Notes: a model not told the origin generated them from the sequence alone. A stretch of DNA of 15,892 nt from Campylobacterota bacterium (GCA_034717975.1 JAYEMF010000064.1:1-15892); one strand, 5' to 3'; positions 2,307 through 12,569 are shown, numbered from the stretch's first letter. Program-made: numbers and translations.

Positions 2307-4805
2307 TTAACGCTGTTCAGTTTCTTTATAATAGGCTTTAAGCTCTTCTACTGAAAATGGTTTGGCATAGAAGTACCCCTGAATCTCATCGCACTCTTCT
2401 CTCTGCAAAAAGTCCACCTGTTCTTTCGTCTCAACACCCTCAGCCGTAATGGAAAGTTTGAATGTTTTGGCAAGCGCAATGATCGCTTTGGCAACGGCCA
2501 CGCTCTCTTGCGAGGCAGGAAGGTCATCCACAAATGATTTGTCTATCTTTAACCGGGTTACCGGAAGTTTTTGCAGATAACTCATGGAGGAGTATCCGGT
2601 ACCAAAATCATCGATGGCCAGATCTACACCCATCTCTCTAATGCCTTGCAGGGTCTGAAGTGCATTCTGAACATTGGTTGCGATGTAGCTTTCCGTAATC
2701 TCCAGTTCGATCTGGCTGGGGAGGATTCCGGTCATAGTGATACTTTTCTGAAGCGTCTGTATCATATCGCTGTTTTGCAGCTGAACGGCAGAGATATTAA
2801 TACTTACCTTATCAAGCGCATAGCCATCTGCTTGAAGTTTGACAAAATCACTGCAGGCCTGCCGCAGTATCCACTCACCCAGCGGAATGATCAAACGGGT
2901 CTCTTCCGCCAACCCAATAAACTGATCAGGCCGGACAAAGCCCAACTCCAGACTGTCCCAGCGTACCAAGGCTTCGATGGCAGCGATTTTCCCCGTCTGC
3001 AAAGAGATCTTTGGCTGGTAAAGCAGAAAAAACTCTTTGCCGGCTTCGACAGCAAATTTCAGGGCATTCGTTCGGGCCGTTCGCTCTTCGAGGTAATCTG
3101 AAAGCTCTTTGGAGAAGAAACTGTAGCTGTTGCGCCCCACATCTTTCGACTTATACATGGCCAGATCTGCATTCTTGATCAATGCAACACTGTCCAGACC
3201 ATCGTTGGGATAGAGTGAAACACCTATGCTGGTCGTGGTGTTGATCTCATGATCACTGCAGATAAAAGGTGCCTTAAAACTATCCAACAGCTTTTTAATG
3301 ATCACTTCGATTTCACTGACCGTTTCGATGTTTTCGATCATAATGTTAAATTCATCACCGCCGATTCGTGCCAATGTATCCGTCGTACGTACCATACTGT
3401 TCAATCGTTTTGAAACGGCTCTCAGCAGCTCATCGCCAATGTCATGCCCCAGGGTATCGTTGACCTCTTTAAAGTGGTCAAGATCCAGAAAGAGGATCGC
3501 CACTTTTGTTTTATTTCGCGCTGCAAGGTCAATGGCATGTTGAAGCCGTAACGTGAACAGCCTGCGATTTGGCAGATCGGTCAGGGTATCATGATGTGAA
3601 AGGTACTCCAGGTTCTCCTGTGACTTCTGCAGGGCAGATTCACGTTCGCAAATTGTCAAAGCCAACTGGTTTACATTTTTTGAAATTGCTTCAAGTTCAT
3701 CCCCGGTACGTATCGGTTTCGAACGGGAGTAATCTCCCCTCTCGATTTTATTGATCTGTGCCATCAGCTTTTCCAGAGGGTTGGCCAGGCCTCTTTTAAA
3801 GAGGGAACGAAGTGATAACAGTATAAAAGCCGTAACAAGCAGCAAGAGCAGCAGTAACTTCTCTCTGTTTTCATCCAATGCGGTTATCAAAAGTGTTTTA
3901 TTGAGTGTGGCGACCAGATATACGTTGCCATTTTGCGTTGGAAGTATCGCTGCACTGAAATACTCTTCATCTGTCTGCACAATCTTCATACGTTCAAGGG
4001 TATTCTTACCCAGAAGCGGGTGGGAAAGGGAAGCATATTTTTCATCCCGACTGGAAGCAATCGTTATATCCAGGTCATTTGAAAGTGATTGCAAATAGGT
4101 TTTCCCGAGCATATAGGACATCTCTATATGGGCCAGGACCTTCTCTTCTCCCGGCTCAGAGATACTCCGGTGCGATTTAATGAAGATCTCATCATCAAAA
4201 AGGTGATAGGTAAGGGTACTTTTGGCAAGCACCTGCCCTTTATCATAGTAGTCAATGTGTTTAAAGCGCATAAGCTTATACTCTTCAAACGGTTTTTCTG
4301 TGTAAACCTTTTCACTTTCACACCTGCTGTAAAGCACTTTTTCACCACTCTTATAGGAGATGAAGTTGAGGCAATAGCCTTTGGCCTCTTTGGTGACAAA
4401 GGCGATCAGCTCTTCATCTTTATCATAAAGGGCGATGTCATTGTTAAGCGAGAGTTTTACCCTGTCCAACAGCTGTTCGGCAATATTTTTTTTCTCTTCA
4501 TCAAGCAAAACAGCATTATAGTTTTCCTTGTCCTGATAGTTGTTTATCAGGTCAATCGAGGCGAGGAGACTCTCATCATGCTGAATAAAAGCGATCCCTT
4601 TTTTGAGTTCATTCTCACTATTGGTCAGCTCAGAGGCAAGGCGATGGAATCCGTACTCCATCTGCTTCTTGGTCTGTTGAAGATGCTTCTCTTTCAAGAA
4701 GGCATCAAAATAGAAACCCACTACAGCGACAGAGATAATAACGGCTAAAATAACAATGAAAGACAATTTGGCTGTCAGATTAAGTTTCTTGTAAAAAGTA
4801 TGCAT
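2307..4805 (-). CDS. Membrane-bound diguanylate cyclase/phosphodiesterase (TM-periplasmic sensor-TM-HAMP-GGDEF-EAL)
   Basis: Two hydrophobic segments flank a ~280-aa periplasmic region. HAMP (PLEKLMAQINKIERGDYS...GDELEAISKNVNQL), HDTLTDLPNR, DLDHFKEVNDTLGH, RTTD-x5-GGDEF, IEALVRW, DDFGTGYSS, KIDKSF, AEGVET, QGYFY. Confidence 0.95.
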   Translation of the reverse strand: MHTFYKKLNLTAKLSFIVILAVIISVAVVGFYFDAFLKEKHLQQTKKQMEYGFHRLASELTNSENELKKGIAFIQHDESLLASIDLINNYQDKENYNAVLLDEEKKNIAEQLLDRVKLSLNNDIALYDKDEELIAFVTKEAKGYCLNFISYKSGEKVLYSRCESEKVYTEKPFEEYKLMRFKHIDYYDKGQVLAKSTLTYHLFDDEIFIKSHRSISEPGEEKVLAHIEMSYMLGKTYLQSLSNDLDITIASSRDEKYASLSHPLLGKNTLERMKIVQTDEEYFSAAILPTQNGNVYLVATLNKTLLITALDENREKLLLLLLLVTAFILLSLRSLFKRGLANPLEKLMAQINKIERGDYSRSKPIRTGDELEAISKNVNQLALTICERESALQKSQENLEYLSHHDTLTDLPNRRLFTLRLQHAIDLAARNKTKVAILFLDLDHFKEVNDTLGHDIGDELLRAVSKRLNSMVRTTDTLARIGGDEFNIMIENIETVSEIEVIIKKLLDSFKAPFICSDHEINTTTSIGVSLYPNDGLDSVALIKNADLAMYKSKDVGRNSYSFFSKELSDYLEERTARTNALKFAVEAGKEFFLLYQPKISLQTGKIAAIEALVRWDSLELGFVRPDQFIGLAEETRLIIPLGEWILRQACSDFVKLQADGYALDKVSINISAVQLQNSDMIQTLQKSITMTGILPSQIELEITESYIATNVQNALQTLQGIREMGVDLAIDDFGTGYSSMSYLQKLPVTRLKIDKSFVDDLPASQESVAVAKAIIALAKTFKLSITAEGVETKEQVDFLQREECDEIQGYFYAKPFSVEELKAYYKETEQR

Positions 4806-4808
4806 GGT

Positions 4809-5729
4809 TTAAAAAATCGGCCCTACCTCTTCGACATTTTCCTGCGTGACAAGCTTTACGGGGATAAAGATATGCTTTGGGACACTCTCATTGGCAAATA
4901 TCTTCAATGCAATCTCAACAGACTGTTTTCCTCCCAGAGGGAAGAGAATCGAACCGCTCTGTGTTCCTTTTCGAATGGCTTCGCGCGCTTCGCTTGTATA
5001 GTCGCATCCTACCATGATGATAGAAGCCGGATCTATCTTATGCCTATGCAGGGCAGAGCGTACACCGCTTAACATACTGTCGCTCTCCGAGAATATCGCG
5101 TCAATATGGACACCCTCTTCGAGCAGCTTTTCCATCTCTATAATGGCATCTTTACGGAGGTAGTTCCCCGTTCGCTTGATCACCTTGATCTCTTTGTGTT
5201 TGGCTATTTCATCCAGAAACCCTCTGCTGCGAAGCTGTGTCACATCGGCTTTCTGCAGTCCTTCGAAAAGCAGGACACGCCCTTTTCCATTCAGGCGTTT
5301 GGCAATATATTTGGCACCTATGGCCCCTATTTTGATATTGTCCGAATTGATGAATGTCGTATAGTCGCTTCCATTAATGCCGCGATCAACAATAATGACA
5401 GGAATACCGCTGTGATAGGCTTTCGATACAACCGGTACCACGGCATCGGCATCATTCGTACCGACAATAAGCAGGTCCACTTTAGCGGCGATAAAGCGCT
5501 CAATCTGCCGGATCAGCAGCGAAGTCTGCCCTTTGGCATCAGAGTAGGTGAACTTCAGGGCCGGATGCTTTGCCACCGCATCACGGACTTCAAATACCTG
5601 TGCTTTTCGAAAATCATTGGCCATCGTATCCTGAGCAAAAGCTATGGTTTTGACACCTTGGTCTGATGCGCTCAGCATCGTCGAAACAGAGACTAAAAAA
5701 ACAATCAGGGTATATTTTAAACGATACAC
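4809..5729 (-). CDS. Periplasmic sugar-binding protein, RbsB-like type I family
   Basis: GTG start with SD AGGAG (5740-5736); Sec-type signal peptide; family motifs NDFR, DAKGQ, GIPVIIVDRG, SDNIKIG, IDAIFSESD, VGCD. Confidence 0.88.
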   Translation of the reverse strand: MYRLKYTLIVFLVSVSTMLSASDQGVKTIAFAQDTMANDFRKAQVFEVRDAVAKHPALKFTYSDAKGQTSLLIRQIERFIAAKVDLLIVGTNDADAVVPVVSKAYHSGIPVIIVDRGINGSDYTTFINSDNIKIGAIGAKYIAKRLNGKGRVLLFEGLQKADVTQLRSRGFLDEIAKHKEIKVIKRTGNYLRKDAIIEMEKLLEEGVHIDAIFSESDSMLSGVRSALHRHKIDPASIIMVGCDYTSEAREAIRKGTQSGSILFPLGGKQSVEIALKIFANESVPKHIFIPVKLVTQENVEEVGPIF

Positions 5730-5897: not shown

Positions 5898-6806
5898 ATG
5901 AGTAATGTACTGCTTTCTGTCTTGGGGATCTACCTCTTTATCGCTGTCGGATTTATTGCCAAGATGAGCTTCAAAGAGAAGATCGACGATCGTACCATCA
6001 CCCTGCTCTCTGTCTATTTCCTGCAGGTCTTTCTCACCTTCTGGGGACTTCTCAAACGGCCGATCGACACGACGCTGATGATGGCCCCGGCACTCTATCT
6101 GGGCATCACGCTGATCGCCCTTCTCCTGATGGTACCGCTTACTCGCATCTTTTTCCAGGAACCCAAAGAGCGTTCCATTTCGACAATCGCCGCGCTTATC
6201 GGTAATACCGGGAACCTCGGTATCCCTCTTGGTATCGCCATCTTTGGAGAGGAGTCCATCCCCTACACCACGATGATCAACCTGATGAATGTCTTCATCG
6301 TCTACACCTTCGGCGTCTACTTCTACTCCCGCGGCAGTTTTGATATGCGGGCTTCGCTGATGAATATTTTGAAGCTCCCTATCCTCTGGGCGGCGCTGGT
6401 GGCGGTCACACTCAACCTCACCGGCTATACCCCCGGTCCGGTCATCGACAAGACCCTTCAGATGGGTGCTTACGCCTCCATGGTGATCCAGCTGCTGCTC
6501 TTTGGCATCTACCTCTACGGTGTCAAGCTCCAGAGCATTAACCGTCTCCTTATCGGCTGGGTCAGCAGCGTCAAATTTCTACTTGTTCCTCTCATCACCT
6601 ATGCAGTACTCTCCTTTGTGGAGATGGAGAGCATGGTCAAAGGGGTGCTGTTTTTAGAGATGATGATGCCGCTCGCCGTCGCCAACGTCAACCTCGGCTC
6701 GCTCTACAACTGCCGGCCCAAAGATATCACGGCACTGGTCCTGGTCACCTCGGTGCTCTTTTTGGGCATCATCTTCCTTGCACTTGAGATCATCACAACA
6801 TTTTAG
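5898..6806 (+). CDS. AEC (auxin efflux carrier/malate permease) family transporter
   Basis: 302 aa, about 10 hydrophobic segments, GNTGNLGIPLGIAIFG and MMPLAVAN motifs typical of the family. Confidence 0.88.
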   Translation: MSNVLLSVLGIYLFIAVGFIAKMSFKEKIDDRTITLLSVYFLQVFLTFWGLLKRPIDTTLMMAPALYLGITLIALLLMVPLTRIFFQEPKERSISTIAALIGNTGNLGIPLGIAIFGEESIPYTTMINLMNVFIVYTFGVYFYSRGSFDMRASLMNILKLPILWAALVAVTLNLTGYTPGPVIDKTLQMGAYASMVIQLLLFGIYLYGVKLQSINRLLIGWVSSVKFLLVPLITYAVLSFVEMESMVKGVLFLEMMMPLAVANVNLGSLYNCRPKDITALVLVTSVLFLGIIFLALEIITTF

Positions 6807-7229: not shown

Positions 7230-8759
7230 ATGGATTCATTAAAACCGACCGATCTGGATTTCACCCAGCCCATCACTATTGCTCCGCATATCCACTGGAT
7301 CGGTATGTACCTTGAGAATGACCCCTTTCAGTGCCACCCTTACCTCATTGAAAACGGTGACGAATCGATCCTGGTCGACCCCGGTTCCATGCTGGAGTTT
7401 GATGCCGTTGTCCGAAAAGTTCAACTGATCACTCCCCTTAAAAATATAAAATATATCATCTTGCACCATCAAGACCCTGACCTCTGCGCTTCCGTCCCGA
7501 CCATTGAAAAGCTGATCGACCGCAGTGATCTGCTTGTCATCACACACAGCCGTATGGTCCCGCTTGTCAAGCACTACCTCATCAAGTCAGACTATTATGA
7601 GATCGATAAAAACAGCCATCGGCTCATGACAGACAACGGCTTGCAACTGAAGTTTTTAACCACTCCCTACTGCCACTCTCCCGGTGCTTTTGTCACCTAT
7701 GAACCTGAGAGCAAGACCCTCTTCTCCGGCGATATCTTCGGCGGTATCGAAGAGTCATGGGAGTTCTTTGCCAAAGAGGACTATTTCGAGAAAGCCAGAC
7801 AGTTCCATGCCGAGTATATGCCGAGCAAAGATATCTTCAATTATGCCCTTTCCAAGATCGAAAAACTCGATATGGAGCTGATCGCTCCGCAGCACGGTTC
7901 CATCATTCAAAAACCCTATATCGCCGACTTGATCGGAAAGATGAAAGGACTTGACTGCGGCCTCTACATTGAACAGAAGTATAATGATGAACTTATCGAT
8001 ATCATCCACGCTCTGCAGCAAAAAGATGAAGCCCTTAAAGAGCGAGAGACTCTCCTCTTCCAACAGTCGAAGATGGCAGAGATCGGTGAGATGATCGCCA
8101 ACATCGCCCACCAGTGGCGTCAACCGCTCGCCATTATCAATACCATTGTCGCCATTGCCAAAGAGAAGAATCAACTAGAGCTGCTGAACAAAGAGGAGCT
8201 CGCCAAAAAACTCGAAGAGATGGAGAAGAACATCATCTATATGTCCACGACGATCGAAGATTTTATGAACTTTTTCCGTCCGGACAAAATCAAGAATGAA
8301 TTCAGCATACGCAAAGCAGTGAGCAATGCCCTCCATATCCTCTCGGCAAGTCTCAACGAAAACAGGATCGATATTAAGATCGAGGGGGATCACTCCCTCG
8401 TAGTCAACGGCTACCTCAACGAATATACCCAGGTCATTCTAACCATCTTGTCCAATGCACAGGATGCCCTCTTGCACTCTCAGGTAAGCGAACCAAAGAT
8501 CAGCATCACCTTTTACAAACACAACGGTAAGACCATACTTGAGATAGCTGACAACGCAAGAGGCATTCCTGATGAAAATATTGGTCGTATTTTTGACCCC
8601 TATTTTACGACAAAACACCAGTCCATCGGTACCGGCCTTGGTCTCTACATCGCTAAAATGATCATTGAAAAGAGTATGGGCGGTTCGCTTCATGCCACCA
8701 ATACGCCAGAAGGCGCAAAATTCATCATCGGAGTACCCCATGCAGACCCCCATCAGTGA
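7230..8759 (+). CDS. Cytoplasmic sensor histidine kinase with N-terminal di-iron MBL-fold (ODP/FprA-like) domain
   Basis: N-terminal: ILVDPGS, HHQDPDL, PYCHSPG, FSGDIFG, APQHG. C-terminal: H-box IAHQWRQPL (H294), N-box SNAQDA, DNARG, FDPYFTTK, GTGLGL. No transmembrane segment. Confidence 0.92.
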   Translation: MDSLKPTDLDFTQPITIAPHIHWIGMYLENDPFQCHPYLIENGDESILVDPGSMLEFDAVVRKVQLITPLKNIKYIILHHQDPDLCASVPTIEKLIDRSDLLVITHSRMVPLVKHYLIKSDYYEIDKNSHRLMTDNGLQLKFLTTPYCHSPGAFVTYEPESKTLFSGDIFGGIEESWEFFAKEDYFEKARQFHAEYMPSKDIFNYALSKIEKLDMELIAPQHGSIIQKPYIADLIGKMKGLDCGLYIEQKYNDELIDIIHALQQKDEALKERETLLFQQSKMAEIGEMIANIAHQWRQPLAIINTIVAIAKEKNQLELLNKEELAKKLEEMEKNIIYMSTTIEDFMNFFRPDKIKNEFSIRKAVSNALHILSASLNENRIDIKIEGDHSLVVNGYLNEYTQVILTILSNAQDALLHSQVSEPKISITFYKHNGKTILEIADNARGIPDENIGRIFDPYFTTKHQSIGTGLGLYIAKMIIEKSMGGSLHATNTPEGAKFIIGVPHADPHQ

Positions 8760-9426
8760 CATATCGATCCTTATCGCCGAAGATGAAGCGGAGCTAAGAG
8801 AGTTTTTTGCCGAATACCTCCAACTCTTCTTCACTACTGTCTACCAGGCTTCATGCGGCCTCCAGGCACTGGAGCTCTACCACTCCAAAAAACCGGATAT
8901 CATCATCACTGACATCAATATGCCCAACATCGACGGACTGAGCATGATCGGACAGATCCGGAAAAAAGATAAAAAGACCAAGATTATCATTACTACGGCT
9001 CACTCGGATAAAGATAAACTTCTCCATGCTATTGAACTTCAACTCGTCAAATACCTGATCAAGCCGGTCAAAAGCGACGAGCTCAAAGCCCTGCTTTTTC
9101 AGGTTGTCGAAGAGATACGCAGCGAATCAAGCTCTATTAACCTCAAAGACGGCTTTGCCTGGGAGATCAGCTCAAAGCAGCTGCTCAAAGATGGCAATCC
9201 TATCGACCTGAAACAGAGTGAGCGTAAACTTCTGGAGATCCTCTGCCAAAGTCCCAATCAGACCGTCTCCAATGAAACTATTTACAATCACCTCTTTGCC
9301 GATAAACCCGAAAAAGAGTTCAGCCTCAACTCCATCACCTCACTGGTGAAACGCATCCGGACAAAACTTCCACCCAAGATTATCTCCAACAACTACGGCG
9401 TTGGCTACACTATTCACACGGTTTAA
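8740..9426 (+). CDS. OmpR/PhoB-family response regulator (receiver + winged helix)
   Basis: Start re-called to ATG 8740 (SD GGAG 8730-8733), overlapping the kinase stop. Receiver IAEDE, TDINMP (D58), KPV; winged-helix end SITSLVKRIRTKL...NNYGVGY. Confidence 0.92.
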   Translation: MQTPISDISILIAEDEAELREFFAEYLQLFFTTVYQASCGLQALELYHSKKPDIIITDINMPNIDGLSMIGQIRKKDKKTKIIITTAHSDKDKLLHAIELQLVKYLIKPVKSDELKALLFQVVEEIRSESSSINLKDGFAWEISSKQLLKDGNPIDLKQSERKLLEILCQSPNQTVSNETIYNHLFADKPEKEFSLNSITSLVKRIRTKLPPKIISNNYGVGYTIHTV

Positions 9427-9457
9427 TACTCCCCTCTATCTCGTAAATTCAAGTAAC

Positions 9458-9490
9458 CGTCATTCGGGACTTGATCCGGAATCAAGTGAC
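9458..9490. repeat. Palindromic CGTC-tagged REP-like element/hairpin
   Basis: CGTC-ATTCGGGA-CTTGA-TCCGGAAT-C is an imperfect stem; it overlaps a perfect inverted repeat ACTTGAT (9469-9475)/ATCAAGT (9481-9487). Confidence 0.5.
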
Positions 9491-9535
9491 AACATCCCAC
9501 ATAAAAATAGATAATATTTTCCTAAATTTTCCCTC

Positions 9536-9588
9536 TGACAACTACTGACAATCTATTGACAAGCAGTGACAATCTCTTGTATTACAAT
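9536..9588 (+). promoter_or_regulatory. nrdD promoter: four phased TGACAA direct repeats plus TACAAT -10
   Basis: TGACAA starts at 9536, 9546, 9557 and 9567 (period 10/11/10). TACAAT at 9583-9588 lies 10 nt after the last repeat. Confidence 0.75.
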
Positions 9589-9615
9589 GCTTCTTACCAA
9601 AATATGGAGAAGCAT

Positions 9616-11739
9616 ATGCTCACCGAAATTCTCAAACGTGACGGTTCGACTCAAGCGTTTACCTCTTATAAAATTGAAGATGCCATCAAAAAAGCTTTCA
9701 ATAGCGAAAGCGTCATGTATGACAGCGAGATCTTCACCCGCGTCATAAAGCGGCTCTCCAACAAACGTATCGCCGCGGTTGAAGATATCCAGGATGCGAT
9801 CGAACTCGAACTCTATAAAGCACGTTACTTTGAGGTGATGAAATCCTTTATCCTCTACCGTCATATGCATAAGATGCAGCGTGAGCATCTTCTGGGGATG
9901 AACGATGACACTACCTATATCAATGCGGTTCAGACCGTAGAAGAGTATATCAGCGGAACCGACTGGCGCATCAAGGCCAACTCCAACACCGGTTACTCCA
10001 ATGCCGGACTGATCAACAACAGTGCCGGAAAGGTGATCGCCAACTACTGGCTGGACAAGATCTACTCCAAAGAGGAGGGGTATGCCCACCGAAACGGCGA
10101 CTACCACATCCATGACCTCGACTGCCTCACCGGCTACTGCGCCGGATGGAGCCTGAGAGTCCTGCTCGATGAGGGCTTTAACGGGGTACGCGGCAGAGTG
10201 GAGTCAGACGCTCCCAACCACTTCCGCGAAGCCCTCGGACAGATGGCGAACTTTCTGGGCATCTTGCAGAGCGAGTGGGCCGGTGCGCAGGCGTTCAGCT
10301 CATTTGACACCTATCTTGCTCCCTACCTGTTCAAAGACCAGCTCTCCTATAGTGACGTCAAAAAAGCGGTCCGAAGTTTTGTCTTCAACCTCAATGTGCC
10401 GGCGCGCTGGGGTCAAAGCCCCTTTACCAACATCACCATTGACTGGACGGTTCCGAGCGACCTTAAAGATCAGACCCCGACCCGCAATCAGCTTCATCTC
10501 TTCAGAGAGTTAGATGATCACTCACTGCTTGAAGAGGCCATATCACGAGGGGCTGAAGGCCTCGATACCATGACCTACAGACATTTCCAGCCGGAGATGA
10601 ATATGATCAACAAGGCCTACTACGAAGTGATGACCGAGGGCGATCGCAGCGGGCAGCCCTTTACCTTCCCGATCCCGACCGTCAACATTACCGAAGATTT
10701 CGACTGGTACGGCGAGAACACCGACATCCTCTTTGAGAACACGGCAAAGATCGGCTCCTCCTATTTTCAGAACTTCATCGGTTCTCAGTATATCCGTGAT
10801 GAGAACGGCAAGCTGGTAGAGAATCCGGATGCCTACAAACCCGGTCATGTACGAAGTATGTGCTGCCGTCTGCAGCTTGACCTGCGTGAACTGCTTAAGC
10901 GTGGCGGCGGGCTCTTCGGAAGTGCGGAGATGACGGGAAGTATCGGCGTCGTCACCATCAACATGGCACGCCTTGGCTACCTCTTTGCCGATGATGAAGA
11001 TGCCCTGTTCACAGAACTCGACCGCCTGATGGAGCTGGCAAAATCAACACTGGAGAAAAAGCGTGTATTTATTCAGGAGATGTTCGATCGGGGGCTTTTC
11101 CCCTATACCAAACGCTACCTGCCTGGATTTAACAACCACTTCTCCACCATCGGGGTCAACGGCATCAATGAGATGATCCGCAACTTCACCCAGGACATCC
11201 ACTCCATTACCGACAAATGGGGAAGTGAGTTCTCCATAAAAGTTCTCGAGCATATCCGCGACAGGATGGTCGAGTATCAGGAAGAGACGGGCAACCTCTA
11301 CAACCTTGAAGCGACCCCGGCGGAGGGAACGACCTACCGTTTCGCCAAAGAGGATAAAAAACGCTTCCCCGAGATCCTTCAGGCAGGCTATGATGACAAT
11401 ATCTACTACACCAACTCCTCGCAGCTGCCGGCCAACTATACGGACGATCCGTTCGAGGCGCTCACCCTGCAAGACGAGCTGCAAAACAAATACACCGGCG
11501 GGACCGTACTTCACCTCTATATGCGCGAGCGTATCAGCTCTACCGACGCCTGCCGCAAACTGGTGAAAAACGTCATCTCCAACTTCAGGCTGCCCTACAT
11601 CACTGTCACCCCGGTCTTCTCCATCTGTGATAAGCACGGCTATATCAGCGGCGAACATGAGTTCTGTCCGCAGTGCGATGAAGAGCTGATCCATGACTAT
11701 GAACAACCCCAACAAAAGGAAGAACCAAATGCATCATAA
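9616..11739 (+). CDS. nrdD: Class III (anaerobic) ribonucleoside-triphosphate reductase large subunit, lacking the C-terminal glycyl-radical domain
   Basis: Start re-called to ATG 9616 (SD GGAG 9606-9609). ATP-cone start ILKRDGS; HIHDL-x4-YC, FTFPIPT, finger loop RSMCCRL, EATPAEG, YTNSS, TGGTVLH, metal site CDKH-x9-CPQC. Ends without an RVxGY motif. Confidence 0.95.
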   Translation: MLTEILKRDGSTQAFTSYKIEDAIKKAFNSESVMYDSEIFTRVIKRLSNKRIAAVEDIQDAIELELYKARYFEVMKSFILYRHMHKMQREHLLGMNDDTTYINAVQTVEEYISGTDWRIKANSNTGYSNAGLINNSAGKVIANYWLDKIYSKEEGYAHRNGDYHIHDLDCLTGYCAGWSLRVLLDEGFNGVRGRVESDAPNHFREALGQMANFLGILQSEWAGAQAFSSFDTYLAPYLFKDQLSYSDVKKAVRSFVFNLNVPARWGQSPFTNITIDWTVPSDLKDQTPTRNQLHLFRELDDHSLLEEAISRGAEGLDTMTYRHFQPEMNMINKAYYEVMTEGDRSGQPFTFPIPTVNITEDFDWYGENTDILFENTAKIGSSYFQNFIGSQYIRDENGKLVENPDAYKPGHVRSMCCRLQLDLRELLKRGGGLFGSAEMTGSIGVVTINMARLGYLFADDEDALFTELDRLMELAKSTLEKKRVFIQEMFDRGLFPYTKRYLPGFNNHFSTIGVNGINEMIRNFTQDIHSITDKWGSEFSIKVLEHIRDRMVEYQEETGNLYNLEATPAEGTTYRFAKEDKKRFPEILQAGYDDNIYYTNSSQLPANYTDDPFEALTLQDELQNKYTGGTVLHLYMRERISSTDACRKLVKNVISNFRLPYITVTPVFSICDKHGYISGEHEFCPQCDEELIHDYEQPQQKEEPNAS

Positions 11740-11896
11740 TGAAATTCTTGAAAAAGTAAACCACAAACGTACCAAATGTATCATCTATACCCGTGTAATG
11801 GGCTACCATCGTCCGGTAGAGAGTTTTAACATCGGGAAAAAAGCTGAGCACACCGAACGCAAGCAGTTTGTAGAATACAGTAAATGTAGTGCCTGA
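11729..11896 (+). CDS. Stand-alone glycyl-radical domain of class III RNR (55 aa)
   Basis: ATG 11729 with SD AAGGA (11716-11720); YTRVMGYHRPVESFNIGKKAEH matches the NrdD C-terminal Gly-radical signature (G25 at 11801-11803). Confidence 0.88.
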   Translation: MHHNEILEKVNHKRTKCIIYTRVMGYHRPVESFNIGKKAEHTERKQFVEYSKCSA

Positions 11897-12569
11897 GACA
11901 CATCCGCTCTATGATATAACGCCCTTTACGGCGCTCGACTACCCTGATCATCTGGCCGCCATCTTCTGGTTTGCCGGGTGCAATATGCGGTGTGATTTCT
12001 GCTATAACGTCGACATCGTCTTTGGAGAAGGGTCGCTCACGATTGATGAAGCCCTCGAGTTTTTACAGACAAGAGTCGGACTTCTCGACGGTGTCGTTCT
12101 CTCCGGCGGCGAAGCGACACTTTATGACGGCCTTCCAGAGCTCTGCCGCCAGATCAAAACACTCGGTTTTAAGATAAAACTCGACACTAACGGCCTGCAA
12201 ACCGAAATGATCAAGACGCTTGTGGAGGAGAAACTGGTCGACTATATCGCCCTGGACTATAAGGCACCTGCACAGAAGTTTGCCGCGGTAACAAAAAACA
12301 GACACTATGAGAAGTTTGAAAAGACACTCAGGTTTTTAATAGTCTCCGACATTTCCTTTGAGGTCAGAACCACCCTGCATCCCGATCTTCTCAATGAGGA
12401 AGATATCAATCTCATCATCGCTGATCTTAAGGCAAAGGGGTATGAAGGGAATTACTACATCCAACACTTCATCACGGCCGATAAGACGATCGGCAAGATG
12501 GCAGCACCCGAAAAAGCGTTTGACCAGAACAAAGTATCAGATGCCATCCCTGTTTTTTACAGAAATTAA
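11889..12569 (+). CDS. nrdG: Anaerobic RNR activating enzyme (radical SAM)
   Basis: DYPDHLAA, GCNMRCDFCYN (CX3CX2C), SGGEAT, KLDTNG, EVRTT; GTG start overlaps the small ORF. Confidence 0.93.
   Translation: MPETHPLYDITPFTALDYPDHLAAIFWFAGCNMRCDFCYNVDIVFGEGSLTIDEALEFLQTRVGLLDGVVLSGGEATLYDGLPELCRQIKTLGFKIKLDTNGLQTEMIKTLVEEKLVDYIALDYKAPAQKFAAVTKNRHYEKFEKTLRFLIVSDISFEVRTTLHPDLLNEEDINLIIADLKAKGYEGNYYIQHFITADKTIGKMAAPEKAFDQNKVSDAIPVFYRN

Follow-up and report, generated by a model that had tools for sequence, protein, structure and literature searches.

Introduction

FixL is an oxygen-sensing kinase with a haem-PAS domain that works with FixJ, a regulator of the FixJ/NarL type, and activators of the OmpR/PhoB family act at direct repeats spaced by one turn of the helix, which replace the -35 element at a short fixed distance from the -10 hexamer. 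One described control system for the anaerobic ribonucleotide reductase (RNR) genes nrdDG is SrrAB of Staphylococcus aureus, a two-component system that induces them under hypoxia and nitric oxide (NO), and whose kinase SrrB has been proposed to sense impaired respiratory electron flow, not a gas at a metal site (PMC3892780). A role in chemotaxis as an O2 sensor has been described for ODP, which is a stand-alone protein of some 250 aa and passes its signal to a chemoreceptor (PMC7666581). Among RNRs in two pieces, the class II enzyme NrdJa/NrdJb is encoded by two consecutive genes, the second supplying the C-terminal zinc-finger part (PMC9669993). In this study, we examined a 15,892-nt stretch of DNA from a Campylobacterota bacterium (GCA_034717975.1, JAYEMF010000064.1:1-15892; hereafter the window), in which a histidine kinase with an ODP domain and an OmpR-type response regulator lie directly upstream of a split class III RNR. 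The window is an entire 15.9-kb contig of a 2.52-Mb genome that is 99.9% complete. Sequence comparison gives good support to a functional link between this kinase/regulator pair and nrdD, and we consider it fairly probable that the pair switches on nrdD, the gene of its separate glycyl-radical subunit and nrdG, the state of a di-iron site being the most likely signal.

An ODP kinase and its regulator precede nrdD

The gene order on the + strand is AEC transporter, thioredoxin, ODP kinase, OmpR-type regulator, nrdD, a 55-aa open reading frame (ORF) and nrdG. From the kinase onward this is the order given by a first-pass annotation made from the sequence alone, and profile matches and coordinates place each of these genes where that annotation had put it. 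The core features are as follows.

7230..8759, + strand: soluble ODP (di-iron MBL-fold) histidine kinase, 509 aa, with ODP at 33-223, HisKA at 286-352 (H294) and HATPase at 400-504
8740..9426, + strand: OmpR/PhoB-type response regulator, 228 aa (Response_reg 3.3e-27, Trans_reg_C 2.2e-13)
9536..9572, + strand: four phased TGACAA direct repeats (9536, 9546, 9557, 9567), from the sequence, the genome scan and relatives
9583..9588, + strand: -10 hexamer TACAAT, aligning with TATAAT/TATACT/TACAAT of 27 related modules
9616..11739, + strand: NrdD large chain, 707 aa, with ATP-cone, catalytic barrel and zinc ribbon by profiles (ribosome-binding site GGAG at 9606-9609)
11729..11896, + strand: glycyl-radical subunit, 55 aa (TRVMGYHRP), sharing 11 nt with the end of nrdD and 8 nt with the start of nrdG
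11889..12569, + strand: NrdG radical-SAM activase (TIGR02495 3.9e-58, 196 bits against a cut-off of 131)

The kinase ORF matches the Pfam family ODP (PF19583) at 3.6e-62, scoring 210.1 bits where the cut-off is 27.2 (and 212.6 bits when the genome was searched), and its N-terminal part aligns to the solved ODPs 6qrq (E 5e-25) and 6qnm (E 4.5e-21). Its ODP-type metal set, HHQDPDL at 79-85 and PQHG at 220-223, is identical in the aligned 6qrq and 6qnm, and 22 related kinases all have H79, H80, Q81, D82, P83, D84, H149, D168, Q221, H222 and H294. In a survey of MBL proteins, the ODP of Thermotoga maritima is described as lacking the third His of motif 2 and as having Gln in motif 5 (PMC7785958), and the kinase shows both hallmarks. 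Its catalytic part is recognised as HisKA (1.4e-7) and HATPase_c (9.6e-19) and carries AHQWRQPL (H294), DNARGI and GTGLGL boxes. As the 19-residue Kyte-Doolittle mean peaks at 0.93, a membrane segment is not evident and the kinase would be soluble. The regulator probably starts at ATG 8740, which follows a GGAG, rather than at TTG 8665 of the ORF list; this start lies 20 nt inside the kinase gene, so that kinase and regulator appear to be translationally coupled. The regulator's receiver has the N-terminal ED, the D in IIITDINMP and the K in KYLIKP, and it is joined to a winged-helix Trans_reg_C domain.

More broadly, ODP occurs as an N-terminal input module of many signalling proteins. Among 28 representatives sampled from 150 listed, it is joined to kinases, GGDEF/EAL proteins, methyl-accepting chemotaxis proteins (MCP), SpoIIE and cyclase domains; the fusion partners include hybrid kinases, GGDEF-EAL and GGDEF-receiver proteins, one SpoIIE phosphatase and one nucleotide cyclase. 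Since the module is so common, a first characterised ODP kinase would inform many proteins. Stand-alone ODP proteins of about 260 aa are also encoded in family genomes without an ODP kinase (G085:C13:22873-23448; G008:C113:28809-29384), one of these genomes belonging to the window's own genus. The host is a sulfur-oxidising bacterium, and the kinase's closest database relatives are labelled Sulfurimonas, Sulfuricurvum and Sulfurovum.

A direct-repeat module marks the nrdD promoter

The four TGACAA repeats 5' of nrdD are spaced by 10, 11 and 10 bp, and the array ends 11 nt 5' of TACAAT, which is followed by GGAG (9606) and the ATG (9616). The pattern TGACAA-N4-5-TGACAA matches three times in the window as against 0.00 in 200 shuffles, and in the whole 2.52-Mb genome at least three phased copies are found at nrdD alone. 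The phased array that had been claimed for this promoter is thus present, with four repeats and with the small correction that a fifth, isolated TGACAA lies at 9487 inside a sigma-70-like match. The array is probably the operator of the regulator in place of a -35 element, with a predicted transcription start near 9595. The geometry is that of a PhoB-like class II promoter, the same layout recurs in 27 related modules, and in relatives the proximal repeat pair is conserved along with its spacing to the -10.

To define promoter types, we compared DNA upstream of nrdD in 60 fetched genomes and in the window's own. Type A, TGACA-N5-TGACA followed after 11-12 nt by the -10, stands at nrdD in 12/12 loci with the pair adjacent, in 2/17 whose genome has the pair at another place (G016, G040) and in 1/32 whose genome lacks it (G050). 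Type B, GTGAC-N6-GTGACA about 35 nt 5' of the -10, is found at nrdD of genera g2, g20 and g21, in 15 loci with the pair and 11 without; there the repeat (GTGACnC-N4-GTGACA) is followed by TTTTATTAT...TTTAAC...TATAAACT. Type C, the FNR/Nss-type palindrome TTGAY-N4-RTCAA, occurs at 14 of the 32 nrdD loci without the pair, which is the pattern expected if the pair does the job of the anaerobic activator. A search with the same palindrome expression found none upstream of the window's nrdD, where the sole palindrome has a 5-nt spacer.

Genome-wide scans with the type-A pattern TGACA-N5-TGACA-N10-13-TAYAMT, controlled by the reversed pattern, gave a single match in this genome, at nrdD, with none for the control (a looser pattern gave 2 matches and 1, respectively). 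Ten other genomes gave 17 matches, control 0, of which 15 are intergenic and directly 3' of the regulator gene, so that over all 11 genomes 16/18 matches hold this position. The module keeps this place even where nrdD lies elsewhere, as in G016, G038 and five genomes of g80. This near-exclusive position after the regulator gene is, among the sequence comparisons, the strongest evidence that the regulator reads the repeats.

A wider regulon in this genome through other TGACAA pairs was considered and rejected: those upstream of ccoNOQP (C120:16283), near nir genes (C149:35348, 45782) and at C77:23436 all lack a -10 at module distance. Five such pairs lie outside nrdD, against about 2.5 estimated from the TGACAA count, and the pair at ccoN is kept, in the same orientation, in 0/10 other type-A genomes. 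Several of these pairs are T-rich, of the form TTTTGACAAT(A/T)T(T/C)TGACA: C120:16283(+) 5' of ccoNOQP, C149:45782(-), C149:35348(-) and C77:23436(-); the one beside the nir cluster precedes a Sel1-repeat/multihaem cytochrome operon, and two more are intergenic as well.

Conservation and distribution of the pair

A check of gene neighbourhoods across relatives had been proposed by the first-pass annotation, and we ran it by searching 151 genomes of the family with kinase, regulator and NrdD. A full-length ODP kinase is present in 36/151, seven of them having a variant with a PAS domain inserted, as seen in g7 and g8. The regulator orthologue (threshold E <= 1e-62) is likewise found in 36/151 and adjoins the ODP kinase every time, while nrdD is found in 64/151. 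Kinase, regulator and nrdD are directly adjacent in 14/151 genomes of 5 genera (the window's own, g5 in 6/6, g18, g7 and five of g8), and the anticipated linkage is kept to that extent. The flanks vary among the genera between AEC-thioredoxin, a glycosyltransferase-3 (GT3)/MFS pair and an HI0933-like gene, and the three-gene core has thus been kept through rearrangements. An nrdD is present in 32/36 genomes with the kinase as against 32/115 of the others; as these genomes are related to one another, they do not count as independent cases. Across the order the kinase is rare, being found in 21/401 genomes in five families.

In a tree of 19 regulators, all those linked to nrdD form one clade and those linked to nir genes the other, with a support of 100/99 for the split. 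In 9/14 full-length loci of the first survey, the sister pair closes nirS-cytochrome c-nirJ-nirF/N-nirE clusters as their final two genes. This placement is found in Sulfurimonas-like genomes and also in G038 and G040. In G040 the nir genes, kinase and regulator reach a contig end, and a type-A nrdD lies on a short contig that may join; in G038 the nir cluster is followed by the pair and, 9 kb on, by nrdD, with NnrS and a Crp-type regulator gene between pair and nrdD. Two further type-A modules lie away from any copy of the pair, one 5' of nosZ and one 5' of the gene of a secreted NIT-domain protein.

The circuit had been described as dedicated to the anaerobic RNR. As the module here is unique to nrdD, the single genome-wide match, that word fits this genome. 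It fails as a general rule, since the sister clade sits at nirS clusters, since modules also stand at sRNA-like genes (sRNA, small RNA), nosZ and the NIT-domain gene, and since 32/64 family genomes with nrdD lack the pair.

Modules at sRNA-like transcripts

The five Sulfurovum-like genomes of g80, which belong to another family, have a kinase 65-68% identical to that of the window. Their nrdD lies far away and, in the 4/5 genomes where it was found, carries two FNR/Nss-type palindromes each, while the module 3' of the regulator gene precedes a short structured RNA; G016 and G038 have the same arrangement. The closing stem is kept in all 9 folded sRNA-like RNAs (z -1.3 to -4.2).

Sequence details of these predicted transcripts are as follows. 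They lie 3' of the regulator gene, open with AGAGGUG and close with CACCUCU (L199:9382-9436; L201:6729-6780; L202:6404-6458; L186:7703-7764, 7936-8043; L190:192-287(-)), that of G016 having a compensated stem variant, AGAGGUACA...UGUACCUCU. The loops carry C-rich, ACUCCUAAU or AUUCAAAGCC motifs. The hairpin design recalls FnrS or RoxS. No Rfam match was found in the g7/g8 loci searched (L086, L087, L091), and the gathering score was not reached in the window and six related loci, long nrdD leaders and sRNA-like regions included. Such long leaders are seen in g5 and g18 (L003:8250-8467; L004; L005:5115-5330), where the type-A promoter lies about 250 nt 5' of the nrdD ATG and the leader contains, besides a GAUUCAAAGC motif, a hairpin resembling a terminator (AAAAACCUUGCG...CGCAAGGUUUUU), without an Rfam match; this may be an sRNA or an attenuator fused to nrdD.

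At the nir-linked loci L006-L015, no exact TGACA pair was found within +/-6 kb. Degenerate modules, recognised by eye only, stand directly 3' of the regulator gene in L006, L007 and L015, reading TTGACT-N4-GTGACA and then TATAAT (L006:8175-8300, L007:8189-8310, L015 after 8173). The RNA that follows them is conserved, measures about 70 nt (GAGACUUUCUAAUAUCUCCUUGAUUCAC...) and finishes with a clear terminator hairpin. The window's own genome has hairpins opening with AGAGGTGCCC or AGAGGTACC at C35:11174-11242, C13 ~22090-22160 and C145:114, one with the loop UAUCUCCUUG and one adjoining GATTCAAAGC; they resemble the relatives' sRNAs and lack a type-A promoter.

A split class III RNR

The large chain scores 1095 bits against a cut-off of 548 with NCBIfam PRK08270 (model positions 2-655 of 684) and aligns to residues 5-706 of 743 of the Prevotella copri NrdD (8p23). 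It ends just past the zinc-ribbon CPQC and has no glycyl-radical loop; the 55-aa ORF, in another frame than nrdD, matches the last ~33 positions of NrdD models. Barrel, zinc ribbon and loop are therefore not on one polypeptide, as they would be in a single-chain NrdD. NrdD and NrdG are both over their cut-offs and are encoded together, and the system as a whole is a class III RNR. As the large chain lacks the loop, the 55-aa protein would be an obligatory subunit and not a spare part.

The small ORF is a separate gene in 57/60 fetched loci of relatives; those without a match are G140, G017 and the contig-truncated G027. Its frame varies, its distance from nrdD reaches ~210 nt and once, in G023, it lies upstream of nrdD. 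This variation rules out a frameshift or sequencing error behind the split. A protein collection holds 2119 clusters of 30-97-aa homologues, widespread in Campylobacterota, among them proteins of named Sulfurovum, Nitratiruptor, Hydrogenimonas and Aliarcobacter labelled 'anaerobic ribonucleoside-triphosphate reductase' or 'hypothetical'. The split anaerobic RNR proposed at the outset is thereby borne out as a real two-gene arrangement; judged by these comparisons, it characterises the phylum and has no relation to the kinase circuit. One Sulfurovum-like genome also has a second nrdD copy in two overlapping pieces (G308:C1:1340791-1342874, query residues 1-456 and 452-693), which is either broken or split at another point.

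In the accessible text of a 2026 review, small separate radical-carrying proteins are known only for formate lyases (PMC13450708), and broad RNR surveys, as far as their accessible text goes, mention split class II enzymes only (PMC9531940, PMC9669993). For split class III RNRs, the accessible parts of the literature name intron- or intein-split phage genes and split class II enzymes only (PMC13450708, PMC3653736, PMC9531940, PMC9669993).

The NrdD motif RSMCCRLQ carries a double-Cys MCCR. T. maritima NrdD has an SCCR motif and belongs to the NrdDh group, which includes the thioredoxin-using enzyme (PMC4493059). A thioredoxin gene accompanies the nrdD cluster in three genera. The likeness of MCCR to the T. 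maritima SCCR, together with the thioredoxin gene beside the cluster, suggests a thioredoxin-dependent rather than formate-dependent class III enzyme, with the window's thioredoxin as its candidate reductant. In G050, too, nrdD has genes for thioredoxin and thioredoxin reductase in its vicinity.

Class I NrdA and NrdB are encoded elsewhere in the genome. The repressor NrdR, stated beforehand to be generally lacking in these bacteria, has no match in this 99.9%-complete genome, and 0/401 genomes of the order are over the family cut-off as against 9/14 control genomes; for this genome and its order the statement holds.

Neighbouring genes and elements upstream of the array

The remaining features around the circuit are two genes 5' of the kinase and two elements between the regulator gene and the array.

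5898..6806, + strand: AEC-family membrane transporter (Pfam Mem_trans 3.7e-17), the same gene lying 5' of the kinase in L003 and L005
6816..7163, + strand: thioredoxin with a TTG start behind AGGAG (Pfam Thioredoxin 2.7e-17), cluster-adjacent also in L003, L004 and L005
9469..9487, no strand: perfect inverted repeat ACTTGAT-N5-ATCAAGT in the sequence, without a T run after it
9486..9515, + strand: sigma-70-like match GTGACA-18-GATAAT 5' of the array, at 10/12 consensus positions, a consensus match only

The AEC, thioredoxin, kinase and regulator genes are probably one transcription unit, the AEC gene being the first. The inverted repeat may be a weak end-of-operon hairpin or a degenerate FNR/Nss-like box with a spacer of 5 instead of 4; the terminator listing of the window has no entry at 9469-9487. 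Elsewhere, the window encodes a HAMP-GGDEF-EAL protein (2307-5729(-)) downstream of the gene of a periplasmic sugar-binding-type protein, an ordinary cyclic di-GMP signalling pair, and carries sdhA/frdA-like, purT, 2-hydroxyacid dehydrogenase and rpsU genes.

Proposed mechanism and rival explanations

In the mechanism that we propose, the cytoplasmic kinase with its N-terminal ODP di-iron domain would phosphorylate the coupled OmpR/PhoB-type regulator, which would then bind head-to-tail on the phased TGACA(A) repeats in the -35 region of nrdD. A class II arrangement like that of a PhoB box would recruit RNA polymerase, and nrdD, the gene of the 55-aa glycyl-radical subunit and nrdG would be turned on. 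The kinase would be active with Fe(II) bound and O2 (or NO) absent, and inactive when O2-bound, oxidised or metal-free. As the most likely signal, this is the state of the di-iron site. The O2-labile class III RNR would in this way be made only under anoxia, with the class I enzyme serving oxic growth. The sequences themselves show the domains, the conserved metal motifs and gene order, and the nearly exclusive tie of the module to the regulator gene, while the parts that we infer are the binding itself, activation rather than repression, and the nature and sign of the signal. An O2/Fe(II) signal is suggested by the homology to ODP and by the coexistence, without NrdR, of an O2-requiring class I and an O2-labile class III RNR.

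Several observations weigh against this mechanism or against parts of it. The O2 link derives from homology to just two chemotaxis ODPs, and the sister clade at nirS clusters, together with the modules at nosZ and the NIT-domain gene, fits sensing of NO or another N-oxide equally well. The nrdD-linked regulators form a single clade, so that the linkage has a single origin and the 14 genomes cannot be counted as 14 separate events. G050, at 94% completeness in 150 contigs, has a type-A nrdD promoter, and the ODP kinase and regulator were not found in it; one type-B locus without the pair belongs to a genome that is 100% complete and has no ODP domain at all. As type B occurs with and without the pair, another factor that reads TGACA-like repeats must exist in the family. 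Lastly, the sigma-70-like match at 9486-9515 would place the array 3' of a second start, and repression is thereby allowed.

A first alternative keeps the circuit and changes its signal: the di-iron domain would sense NO, or another N-oxide, from denitrification and not O2, and the system would belong to denitrification control, with nrdDG as one output because denitrifying growth is anoxic. Besides the nirS clusters that the sister pair closes in 9/14 full-length loci and in G038 and G040, the NnrS and Crp-type genes of G038 point this way, as do the two modules apart from the pair at nosZ and at the nitrate/nitrite-sensing NIT gene, the nir cluster of this genome, and the ODP fold itself, which is that of NO/O2-reducing flavodiiron proteins (1ycf, 'nitric oxide reductase', matches at 9.5e-11). 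Yet the only characterised ODPs are described, in the accessible parts of the sources, as O2/Fe(II) sensors (PMC7666581, PMC7785958), the module was not found at the nir genes of this genome, and the nir genes of relatives carry FNR/Nss-like boxes that could already give NO control. NO is a serious rival, but we regard it as rather unlikely and O2 as the likelier signal.

It is very improbable that the repeats are read by some other, more widespread regulator and that the pair adjoins nrdD for another reason, for instance to control only its own neighbouring sRNA or operon. The type-B repeats at nrdD in 11 loci without the pair, one of them in the complete genome devoid of ODP, would be accounted for in this way, as would G050 and the TGACAA pairs at ccoNOQP and nir, which are not conserved (0/10 type-A genomes in the same orientation). 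However, 16/18 full-module matches in 11 genomes directly 3' of the regulator gene, against a control of 0, argue for the cognate regulator; type B differs in phasing (11 instead of 10 bp) and in its distance to the -10, and the incomplete, fragmented assembly of G050 lessens its force. Very improbable, in our view, is a repressor that, phosphorylated under O2, coats the four repeats and blocks the upstream sigma-70-like promoter. That promoter would start transcripts ~15 nt 5' of the array, and the array has four repeats here against two in relatives; but the match is not kept in relatives, whereas 27 modules keep a repeat pair and a -10 at a fixed 11-12 nt without a -35, the layout of an activator-dependent promoter. 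The proposed activation of nrdD by the ODP kinase and its regulator is the reading that we retain.

Significance

As a candidate the locus is compact and testable, having a single soluble kinase, a single regulator and operator, and a single target that is essential and O2-labile. A broader reading, possible but on balance doubtful, is that in Sulfurimonadaceae and Sulfurovum-like bacteria the pair fills the place of the missing FNR-like gas sensor, with a small anaerobic regulon, accompanied by an exchangeable radical subunit of NrdD. If so, non-haem di-iron sensor kinases would have their first member with a defined operator, TGACA-N5-TGACA placed at the -35, the regulon comprising hairpin sRNAs with C-rich/CUCC loops as counterparts of FnrS and RoxS, nrdDG and, in some genomes, nosZ. 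The O2-cleavable loop would then be an exchangeable 55-aa subunit, so that after O2 damage only the small chain would be replaced, the first such arrangement outside pyruvate formate-lyase. The split NrdD in any case bears on a point raised in the accessible text of the 2026 review, namely whether separate radical-carrying proteins exist beyond pyruvate formate-lyase (PMC13450708). In the literature covered, which leaves out most subscription journals, we came across no report of a sensor kinase of the ODP or flavodiiron type, of two-component control of nrdD in Campylobacterota, of a direct O2 sensor regulating genes in these chemolithotrophs, or of the split NrdD of Campylobacterota.

Comparison with known systems

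The kinase shares its sensor family and metal motifs with the ODPs of Treponema denticola and T. maritima (6qrq, 6qnm). Unlike these stand-alone proteins, the window's domain is fused to a HisKA/HATPase kinase and its output is transcription. As in FixL/FixJ, a kinase with a metal cofactor would act through a regulator on genes for low oxygen, but the sensor here is a non-haem di-iron MBL domain and the regulator is of the OmpR/PhoB type. Control of nrdDG by FNR/Nss, of the Crp superfamily, has the same target operon and the same logic of activation by anoxia or N-oxides; it is a one-component system acting at a palindrome, whereas the window has a two-component system, direct repeats and no canonical box. 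SrrAB also has nrdDG as a target, though its regulon is large and its sensor domain unrelated. The nrdD promoter resembles the pho box of PhoB, in which phased direct repeats likewise replace the -35 and end ~10 nt 5' of the -10, and departs from it in its half-site TGACA and in its signal.

For the enzyme, the nearest parallels are YfiD/GrcA of pyruvate formate-lyase and NrdJa/NrdJb. Like the 55-aa ORF, YfiD/GrcA is a small separate protein with a glycyl-radical loop, but GrcA serves as a backup for an enzyme with a loop of its own, whereas the window's large chain has none and the small protein is not a spare part in that sense. Compared with NrdJa/NrdJb, both the class and the break point differ: the zinc ribbon stays on the large chain and the radical loop alone is separate. 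Thus, while two-component control of nrdDG (SrrAB), O2-sensing kinases (FixL) and the ODP domain are already known, what appears new here is this candidate ODP-kinase circuit with its well-defined, testable operator.

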